Source: Candidatus Iainarchaeum sp. (lineage in GTDB: Archaea > Iainarchaeota > Iainarchaeia > Iainarchaeales > CSSED10-239). From it: DNA of 32,000 bases. The notes beneath the pieces were generated by a model. The model made no database searches. It saw only the letters and a list, made by a program, of their open reading frames with translations, and had not been told where the DNA came from. The stretch is from assembly GCA_037441475.1 (NCBI GenBank), contig JBBISB010000002.1, positions 1 through 32,000 on the forward strand. The letters are read 5' to 3'. How positions within the stretch are numbered: the stretch's first letter is position 1; every line of letters starts with the position of its first letter. Of this stretch, positions 10,833 to 12,122 are shown in pieces. A program made the translations under genes and the position numbers.

Positions 10833-12122
10833 CTACTTACCCTCTCTTAAAAGATTATCAATAACCTTCTCTTGCCTTAAATAAAGATTTTTTAAATCAC
10901 TTTTATTTCTAAAATCAAAAGCCATCTTAAACTTTTCAAATATCTTTACAGAATCATTTACCTTAACTAACTTTTTCTTAGAAATATCATACTCAAATAA
11001 TTTATTTAATACAATTTTATAACCATCAAAAATAACTTCACAAATCTCAGTAATGTTTCTAAGATCAATTGTTTTTCCTTTAGAATATTTATTATACCTT
11101 CTTTGAATAATGATAAGATCAATTGCACCTAAGTCAGTTTCTAAAACCCCATATGACTTAAACCTTAACAAAGCCTCATTTGCTGTCTAAGAATGGAAAG
11201 TTGTATAAGTTCCTTTAGCCTGTCCACATAACATAGACTCAATTAAGTACTTAGATTCCTCTCTTGTCCTAACCTCTCCAATAACAGCCCTATCAGGCCT
11301 CATTCTTAGGGTATTAATAACAAGATTTTCTAAGGTTATTCCAAGATCTTGATTAACTAAAGTAAAAACCTTATGCTTGTAAGGAATATTAATCTCTCTT
11401 ACCTCCTCAACAACTACAATCCTTTCATCCAAGGGAACAAAGGAGATTAAAGTATTAAGAGTAGTTGTTTTACCAGAACCAGTATTTCCAGCAACAATAA
11501 TGTTTGAGTCTGTTAAGAAGCAAAGGCTTAAAAAAACTAAAGCCTCTTTTGTAATTGTCTTAAAATTAATTAAATCTTTTATGGTAAATGGCTTTTCTGA
11601 AAATTTTCTAATAGTTAAAGAAGCTGTTTCTGTTACTGGGCTTATTATAGCATTCATTCTTGAGTTGTCTTTAAGGTAGGTATCAAGGATAGGATTTTTA
11701 AGAGTGATATATTTATTAGAATGCCAAGAGAGCTTATTTATTAAATCTCTAATAATTAAAGAAGAAGTGTATAAAAGATTTGTTTCAAGCCAACCATAAT
11801 ACCTGTGATAAACATACAGTGGTTTATTTTCAGAAAGAATAACAATCTCCTCAAGGTTATAGTCCTCTAAAATATCTGTAAGTGGACCATAGTGATAGAG
11901 ATTTTTAAAAGAGATATCTAAAATGTAATTGAATTGATCCTCCTCAAGTTCAATGTTATTAATATAACAATAATCAATTAATTCTTTTTCAATATCCTCT
12001 TTAATCTGTAGTTCAGAAAGTTTACCTACATCTTCAACTTTATTTTTATATGAATCTAAAATAAAGTTAATAACCTCTATTTCCTGTAAAGCTAGGTCTT
12101 GATGAAAAACAATGTATTTTTT
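10833..12122 (-). pseudogene. FlaI/TadA/VirB11-type secretion ATPase with intact catalytic motifs but an in-frame TAG and no start codon of its own
   Basis: One frame is open from 12122 to 10833 (429 codons including the TAG). Motifs: GPLTDILEDYNLEEIV, TASLTIRKF, Walker A AGNTGSGKTT (GNTGSGKT at 11466-11489), Asp box VVEEVREI, Walker B RPDRAVIGEVR, His box TTFHS. TAG at 11187-11189 sits right after the His box. No ATG/GTG/TTG in the first 155 codons. Confidence 0.8.

Follow-up and report, generated by a model that had tools for sequence, protein, structure and literature searches.

The minus-strand gene at 12589..10833 of the window (the whole stretch of 32,000 nucleotides that was analysed) codes for a secretion ATPase with an N-terminal iron-sulfur domain and is, with a probability of roughly 80%, an ordinary young pseudogene, one of many genes caught up in a lineage-wide decay of a fast-evolving genome. 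It carries two disabling lesions, a one-base frameshift and an in-frame TAG, at sites where the orthologues are intact, and both lesions are present in more than one assembly. The locus should be annotated as a pseudogene and not as a recoding event, and by itself it is of little consequence. More value lies in the genome around it, which offers a rare view of erosion under way in a DPANN archaeon, and in the conserved group of ferredoxin-fused ATPases to which the intact form of the gene belongs.

Structure of the ATPase gene

A preliminary description of this DNA had reported a TAG interrupting an otherwise continuous minus-strand frame, and re-translation of 12122..10833 indeed gave 430 codons with a single internal stop, the TAG at 11187-11189, which follows directly on ...GTYTTFHS. 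The four catalytic motifs, also described there as intact, are Walker A (GNTGSGKTT), the Asp box (VVVEEVREI), Walker B (RMRPDRAVIGEVR) and the His box (TTFHS), and they aligned without gaps to the motifs of afGspE, CpaF and FlaI. The Pfam model PF00437 (T2SSE), with a cut-off of 24.9 bits, scored 96.1 bits on the segment that precedes the TAG and 112.8 bits when the alignment was allowed to run across it. The stretch of about 110 well-formed codons noted beyond the TAG was counted as 117 open codons, 75-85% identical to the C-termini of orthologues. The features of the locus and of its two operon partners are as follows.

12589..10833, minus strand: full ATPase gene, a single gene with a frameshift and an internal stop
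12092..12589, minus strand: N-terminal Fer4 ORF, 165 aa, with a 2x[4Fe-4S] ferredoxin domain (Pfam Fer4_6, Fer4_7, Fer4)
12117..12124, minus strand: A8 run (T8 on the plus strand) with a one-base loss that leaves the downstream frame at -1, from frame comparison and DNA alignment
11190..12122, minus strand: ATPase frame upstream of the TAG, with the N-terminal domain of the ATPase, Walker A, Asp box, Walker B and His box
11187..11189, minus strand: in-frame TAG at a Gln column, one residue past the His-box ...TFHS
10833..11186, minus strand: C-terminal 117 codons and the normal stop TAG 10833-10835, matching afGspE residues ~366-452 and now untranslated
10017..10747, minus strand: operon gene 2, membrane protein, 247-256 aa in relatives, located by tblastn against the orthologue from genome G002
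9302..10002, minus strand: operon gene 3, membrane protein with faint T2SSF similarity, 234-236 aa in relatives

The preliminary description had covered the frame 12122..10833 with its TAG, and mentioned neither a missing start nor a frameshift. The TAG stands, but it is not the only lesion. Read from 12122, the frame contains no ATG, GTG or TTG over 155 codons, the first start being the ATG at 11657, because the true N-terminus lies in another frame across the A8 run. This N-terminus is the 165-aa Fer4 ORF, which is collinear with the ATPase and upstream of it and which aligns to residues 1 to ~160 of orthologues of 584-587 aa; its final ~8 codons and the TAG at 12092-12094 are out-of-frame read-on past the frameshift. 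The gene therefore has two lesions, and instead of the one uninterrupted frame with a start codon that a functional gene would have, we found a frameshift, a TAG and 155 start-less codons. DNA alignment to the orthologue in G002 placed a single 1-nt gap inside the A8 run at 12117-12124, and adding one A (A9) restored the exact orthologue length, giving ...ETKENKKKYIVFHQ against ...ETKDNIKKYLLFHQ. The A8 run is not conserved, as relatives have A4 to A7 at the site.

Orthologues and the codon at the TAG position

The closest database proteins are single Fer4 + T2SSE proteins of 584-587 aa, 79-84% identical over the ATPase part, and the close orthologues are all single ORFs (579-626 aa) with both domains. 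Among the 21 genomes of the same family that were searched, 17 have the gene at full length and uninterrupted, in one it is cut by contig ends, and three, which are incomplete genomes, gave matches at the level of paralogues only; stops within the Fer4-ATPase orthologue occur, among same-family genomes, in the present genome only. Fer4-fused matches were also found in several genomes of the same order. In alignments of 12 and 47 sequences the column of the TAG is occupied by Gln, occasionally by Asn, in 46 orthologues, and the codons used there by ten relatives are CAA (eight), CAG (one) and AAT (one), with a stop in none of them. The comparison with related genomes that the preliminary description had suggested thus shows a Gln codon (CAA or CAG) as the usual occupant of this position, and the case that would have spoken against a broken gene, orthologues that genuinely end at the TAG and are followed by a separate downstream gene, did not hold for any orthologue.

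This genome has no second copy of the Fer4-fused ATPase. The claim that the gene is the only motif-competent secretion ATPase is correct within the window; outside it, contig C1 encodes three more T2SSE ATPases in which Walker A, Walker B and His box are all complete.

Lesions in the operon partners

In relatives the ATPase gene is preceded by a Prs-like gene on the opposite strand and followed by two small membrane protein genes and a DedA/VTT gene, and this order is seen on contig L006 of G002 and again in the window, with the operon at L006:3395-6633 and at 8671-12589, respectively. Both membrane protein genes are broken here. In gene 2 the ATG at 10745-10747 reaches a TAA after six codons. 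A T7 run at 10729-10735 separates this ATG from the body of the gene, which is in the -1 frame and has its first start, a TTG, at 10661. The body itself is 75% identical to the G002 orthologue by tblastn and has no internal stop, and with T8 in place of T7 the N-terminus would be MEGMFFLKNNIFTRKY, which matches MQEIIFLKNNIFTRKY in G002. In gene 3 the ATG at 10000-10002 and the 21 codons after it match the N-termini of orthologues, after which an A7 run at 9940-9946 is one base short, the frame shifts, and the body restarts at the ATG at 9940. We considered the early TAA of gene 3 as a nonsense mutation and rejected this, as the stop is due to the A7 frameshift. All three operon genes are therefore broken, while the flanking DedA/VTT, Prs-like, PCC, HAD and methyltransferase genes are intact.

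Relation to known motor ATPases

From its alignments the protein appears to be a motor of the hexameric GspE/FlaI/CpaF kind. It resembles afGspE of Archaeoglobus fulgidus (PDB 2OAP/2OAQ), with E = 1e-46 to 2OAP and gap-free alignment of the four motifs, and both the N-terminal and the C-terminal ATPase domains align to FlaI of Sulfolobus acidocaldarius (4IHQ/4II7) and CpaF of Caulobacter (8RKD, 9E24); the alignments to the three proteins span ~390 residues with E values of 1e-46 to 1e-30. It is not FlaI itself, as the intact orthologue P0002 scored 172 bits with the FlaI equivalog model NF058587, far short of the cut-off of 550. Unlike the GspE/FlaI/TadA-type hexameric ATPases, the Iainarchaeota group adds an N-terminal 2x[4Fe-4S] domain of ~130 aa, and in the present copy this longer protein is twice interrupted.

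In Sulfolobales, a separate gene of the Aap pilus operon codes for an Fe-S cluster protein (arCOG07320) whose function is not known (PMC13705601). The Aap pilus likewise has an Fe-S module associated with the ATPase/platform pair of an archaeal type IV filament. Here, in contrast, the ferredoxin-type domain is fused to the ATPase, and the platform consists of two small proteins with faint T2SSF similarity. The fusion is not described in the surveys of archaeal type IV pili that we searched, and the literature on Forterrea pseudogenes, on Fer4-fused pilus ATPases and on run SRR11582163 yielded nothing specific. The intact Fer4-T2SSE group is widely conserved and apparently not described so far. 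The fusion hints at redox control of a pilus motor.

Recoding

A full-length ATPase could in principle be made from this locus if a -1 slip, ribosomal or transcriptional, occurred on A_AAA_AAT and if the TAG were then read through or suppressed with Gln, Pyl or a near-cognate residue. The sequence has features that invite such a reading. Programmed -1 frameshifting reportedly takes place at A-AAA-AAT in fucA1 of Saccharolobus solfataricus, and the A8 run presents the same heptamer in the zero frame, in the same phase and with the same required direction of shift as the Sulfolobus slippery site; a -1 slip gives the exact orthologue length, and a TAG read as Gln restores the conserved residue.

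The machinery for this was not found. No tRNA with a CUA anticodon occurs among the 36 tRNAs detected by ARAGORN in the 769-kb genome (89.5% complete), the best PylS_Cterm score in this genome, 24.8 bits, fell short of the cut-off of 178, and PylD had no match in it; the same PylS/PylD searches exceeded the cut-off in 1 of 14 named control genomes, a set that includes Methanosarcina acetivorans. The pyl genes and suppressor tRNAs that the preliminary description had pointed to as a possible sign of read-through were thus not found, as judged by a CUA tRNA, PylS and PylD. TAG is moreover a normal terminator in this genome, ending 91 of 451 frames of at least 200 codons, this ATPase gene included. 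Reassignment of TAG to Gln was tried and rejected, since the ORF lists barely change under such a code and the gene's own terminator is a TAG. Reassignment of a stop codon across the genome was rejected as well: in-frame stops relative to a same-genus genome comprise 37 TAA, 19 TGA and 18 TAG, and they align with many different residues.

Unlike the fucA1 site, the A8 site is not conserved in any orthologue, the orthologues being single ORFs with A4 to A7 at this position, and the TAG lesion lies downstream of it. A programmed frameshift site was therefore not recognized here, and the lack of conservation together with the downstream nonsense codon makes programmed frameshifting at A8 unlikely as judged from the sequence. 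The TAG too is found in no relative. Expression of the full module would need two independent low-efficiency events in the ATPase gene and two more in the partner genes, and we regard recoding as extremely improbable. Of the two explanations offered in the preliminary description, a young pseudogene or stop read-through, it is the first that agrees with the lesions and with the intact genes of relatives.

Assembly and sequencing error

Three of the four lesions in the operon are one-base losses in A or T runs of at least seven bases, which is the classic place for a sequencing error, and this weighs against a pseudogene. The gene could in that case be intact, with A8, T7 and A7 under-called and the TAG a consensus error. 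In line with this, the gene shows no other decay: the catalytic motifs are all intact, it has no independent signature of relaxed selection, and it is 84% identical to its best orthologue and more conserved than its neighbours.

Against an error stands a second assembly. The exact 165-aa and 156-aa fragments were found on a 15,869-bp Logan contig from run SRR11582163, whose gene calls are split in the identical way (165, 156, 112, 192 and 212 aa) and whose DNA matches the window at 100% identity over 8187-15589, a span that includes all four lesions. The Logan contig was built independently of the MAG by a different, de Bruijn-graph assembler from the reads of one run, probably the same reads as those of the MAG. 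Because of this different assembler and single run, the lesions are not an artefact of the MAG assembler, of binning or of polishing. Exact-pattern scans around the TAG in other genome and metagenome contigs, with the records of the window itself excluded, returned no further copy.

The kinds of lesion found across the genome also disagree with an error. Random substitutions in the ORFs concerned would create a stop in 5.6% of cases, so that the 20-36 stops observed, if taken as errors, would imply a per-base substitution error of 0.08-0.14%, to be set against 21 indels. The implied ratio of substitutions to indels, ~17-30:1, is the opposite of what homopolymer-prone sequencing platforms give, and it fits spontaneous mutation and not homopolymer-prone or long-read sequencing. 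Longer in-frame runs elsewhere were correctly read, the frameshifts go in both directions with about half of them outside homopolymers, and the lesions are concentrated in particular genes and operons where errors would be scattered, as set out in the next section. Sequencing or assembly error is, on this evidence, a decidedly unlikely source of the four lesions.

Gene breakage across the genome

The same-genus genome G003, a single contig of 839,632 bp, was compared with the present genome by tblastn in both directions, using as the conserved set ORFs of G003 of at least 120 aa with at least 55% identity. In the present genome 28 of 508 conserved genes (~5.5%) were broken relative to G003, against 2 of 503 in the reverse comparison. 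Mid-gene stops were present in 20 of the broken genes and frameshifts in 15, some having both. The 58 lesions were clustered, with 15 genes carrying two or more where 4.4 were expected (2.6 if capped at two per gene), a number that was reached in 0 of 20,000 simulations. Breakage per gene ranges from single lesions to 11, the heaviest wrecks being a PALP enzyme with nine stops and two frameshifts (C1:474536-475547) and a TctA transporter with five stops (C1:491479-492651), and whole operons are broken, for example all three genes of an ABC-2 transporter (C1:91033-93531). A uniform mechanism for the frameshifts was rejected, as 14 are '-1' and seven '+1'.

The broken set is accessory. It includes GlmS (C1:46150-47975), MnmA, aTrm56, a histidine phosphatase, the canonical Prs, a DsbA-like protein, MscS (C2:75797-76849), an MBL hydrolase, a nucleotidyltransferase, a reverse transcriptase, another T2SSF gene and a giant adhesin, and none of the 28 is a ribosomal, RNA polymerase or aminoacyl-tRNA synthetase gene. 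The pattern as a whole looks like ongoing genome erosion. It also serves as a warning against reading alternative codes or metabolic capacity from this MAG.

In AT-rich endosymbionts such as Buchnera and Blochmannia, genes carry frameshifts in poly(A) tracts that are partly rescued by transcriptional slippage. The present genome resembles these reductive genomes in its low GC content (28%), in single-base changes in long A/T tracts, in frequent nonsense mutations, in the many genes that were hit recently and in a lineage that evolves faster than its relatives; it differs from Buchnera and Blochmannia in that it is a free-standing MAG of a DPANN archaeon.

The tracts in the operon might also be read as contingency sites, in which case the A/T runs would turn a surface structure on and off heritably and the assembly would show the 'off' state of a mixed population. 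A slippage-prone tract of at least seven bases does lie at the break in each of the three operon genes, two of the tracts are placed just after the start codon, which is the usual position in bacterial contingency genes, and genes for the surface and for pili make up more than their share of the broken set. Slippage, however, cannot revert the TAG, three tracts that are off at once are unlike known switches, the tracts are not conserved in relatives, and lesions of the same kind also break many non-surface genes, so that we consider phase variation very unlikely. A further reading, in which the three tracts are slippage switches, by phase variation or by transcriptional-slippage rescue, and the TAG is leaky, so that a subpopulation builds an Fe-S-coupled pilus motor, is highly improbable; if true, it would make this the first contingency locus described in archaea.

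Several observations were made in passing. The canonical PRPP synthetase gene (C1:500113-501119) has two frameshifts, and a divergent Prs-like paralogue in the window (12687-13607) is intact; the broken canonical gene puts the cell's source of PRPP in question. Two segments, C1:359501-361500 and C1:365852-367851, are 100% identical over the 2 kb compared, and the reverse-transcriptase gene that they contain is interrupted in both copies by the same in-frame TAA, which aligns to a Glu. Three gaps of 100 N (C1:6318-6417, 517365-517464 and 670988-671087) show contig C1 to be a scaffold.

Proposed course of gene loss

If the locus is a young pseudogene, its ancestor would have been the conserved three-gene operon of the Iainarchaeota (DPANN), with a motor ATPase of ~585 aa and two small membrane partners. 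One A would have been lost from the long A tract, most likely by replication slippage, uncoupling the Fe-S domain from the ATPase and leaving the ATPase frame without a start. A Gln codon would have become TAG either by a C-to-T transition (CAG to TAG) or in two steps from CAA; the simplest histories would be a synonymous change of CAA to CAG followed by the C-to-T change, or the series CAA, TAA, TAG. An origin of the TAG by a G-to-T change was rejected, since relatives have CAA or CAG there. The TAG cuts the final 117 residues off the ATPase domain. In each of the two partner genes a T or A tract shortly behind the start codon is one base short, and the lesions would since have become fixed in the population.

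With normal decoding no full-length ATPase can be made, and the largest possible product is a 156-aa fragment from the ATG at 11657, with neither the N-terminal domain nor the C-terminal fifth of the protein; a system that depends on such a fragment would be off. This particular filament or secretion module, kept by all close relatives, has probably been lost from the organism, while others were retained.

Age of the lesions and selection

The terminal branch of the ATPase has a length of 0.12, which is within the range of the sister genomes (0.08-0.16) in a relative-rate and tree test. Changes specific to the present genome (G000) fall on the three codon positions of the ATPase in the numbers 25/16/105, those specific to G002 in the numbers 18/17/43, and ~70% of the changes on the branch of G000 are at third positions, in the ATPase as in ThrRS. 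Since the substitutions are mostly at third positions, the breaks are recent: the ATPase has been under purifying selection for almost the whole branch, with no long neutral phase. On this branch the share of positions 1 and 2 did not differ between the three operon genes (32%) and five intact neighbours (35%, P = 0.52).

Four residues of the ATPase copy are replaced at columns that are invariant in 46 orthologues, C91F, D92N, G131W and V435A, the first two of them in the otherwise invariant KCDLC motif of the Fer4 domain. These replacements are not gene-specific evidence of decay, because the intact ThrRS gene (window 251-2164) shows the same excess, with seven replacements at invariant columns against 0-1 in G001-G003. 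The ThrRS branch of G000 is twice as long as that of G003, with changes at codon positions of 19/12/52 and 8/3/30, respectively. Relaxed selection specific to the ATPase was thus rejected, there being no signal of it in branch length, in codon-position spectra or in singletons at invariant columns, the last of these being confounded by ThrRS. We read the data as those of a fast-evolving lineage with somewhat relaxed selection overall.

Over window 251-2164 and 8674-15697 the lineage of G000 has accumulated ~2x the substitutions of the sister genomes, mostly at third positions. The nearest relative differs between genes 10 kb apart, with ThrRS closest to G003 (91%, against 84% for G002) and the ATPase closest to G002 (79%, against 75%), which may reflect recombination between species.
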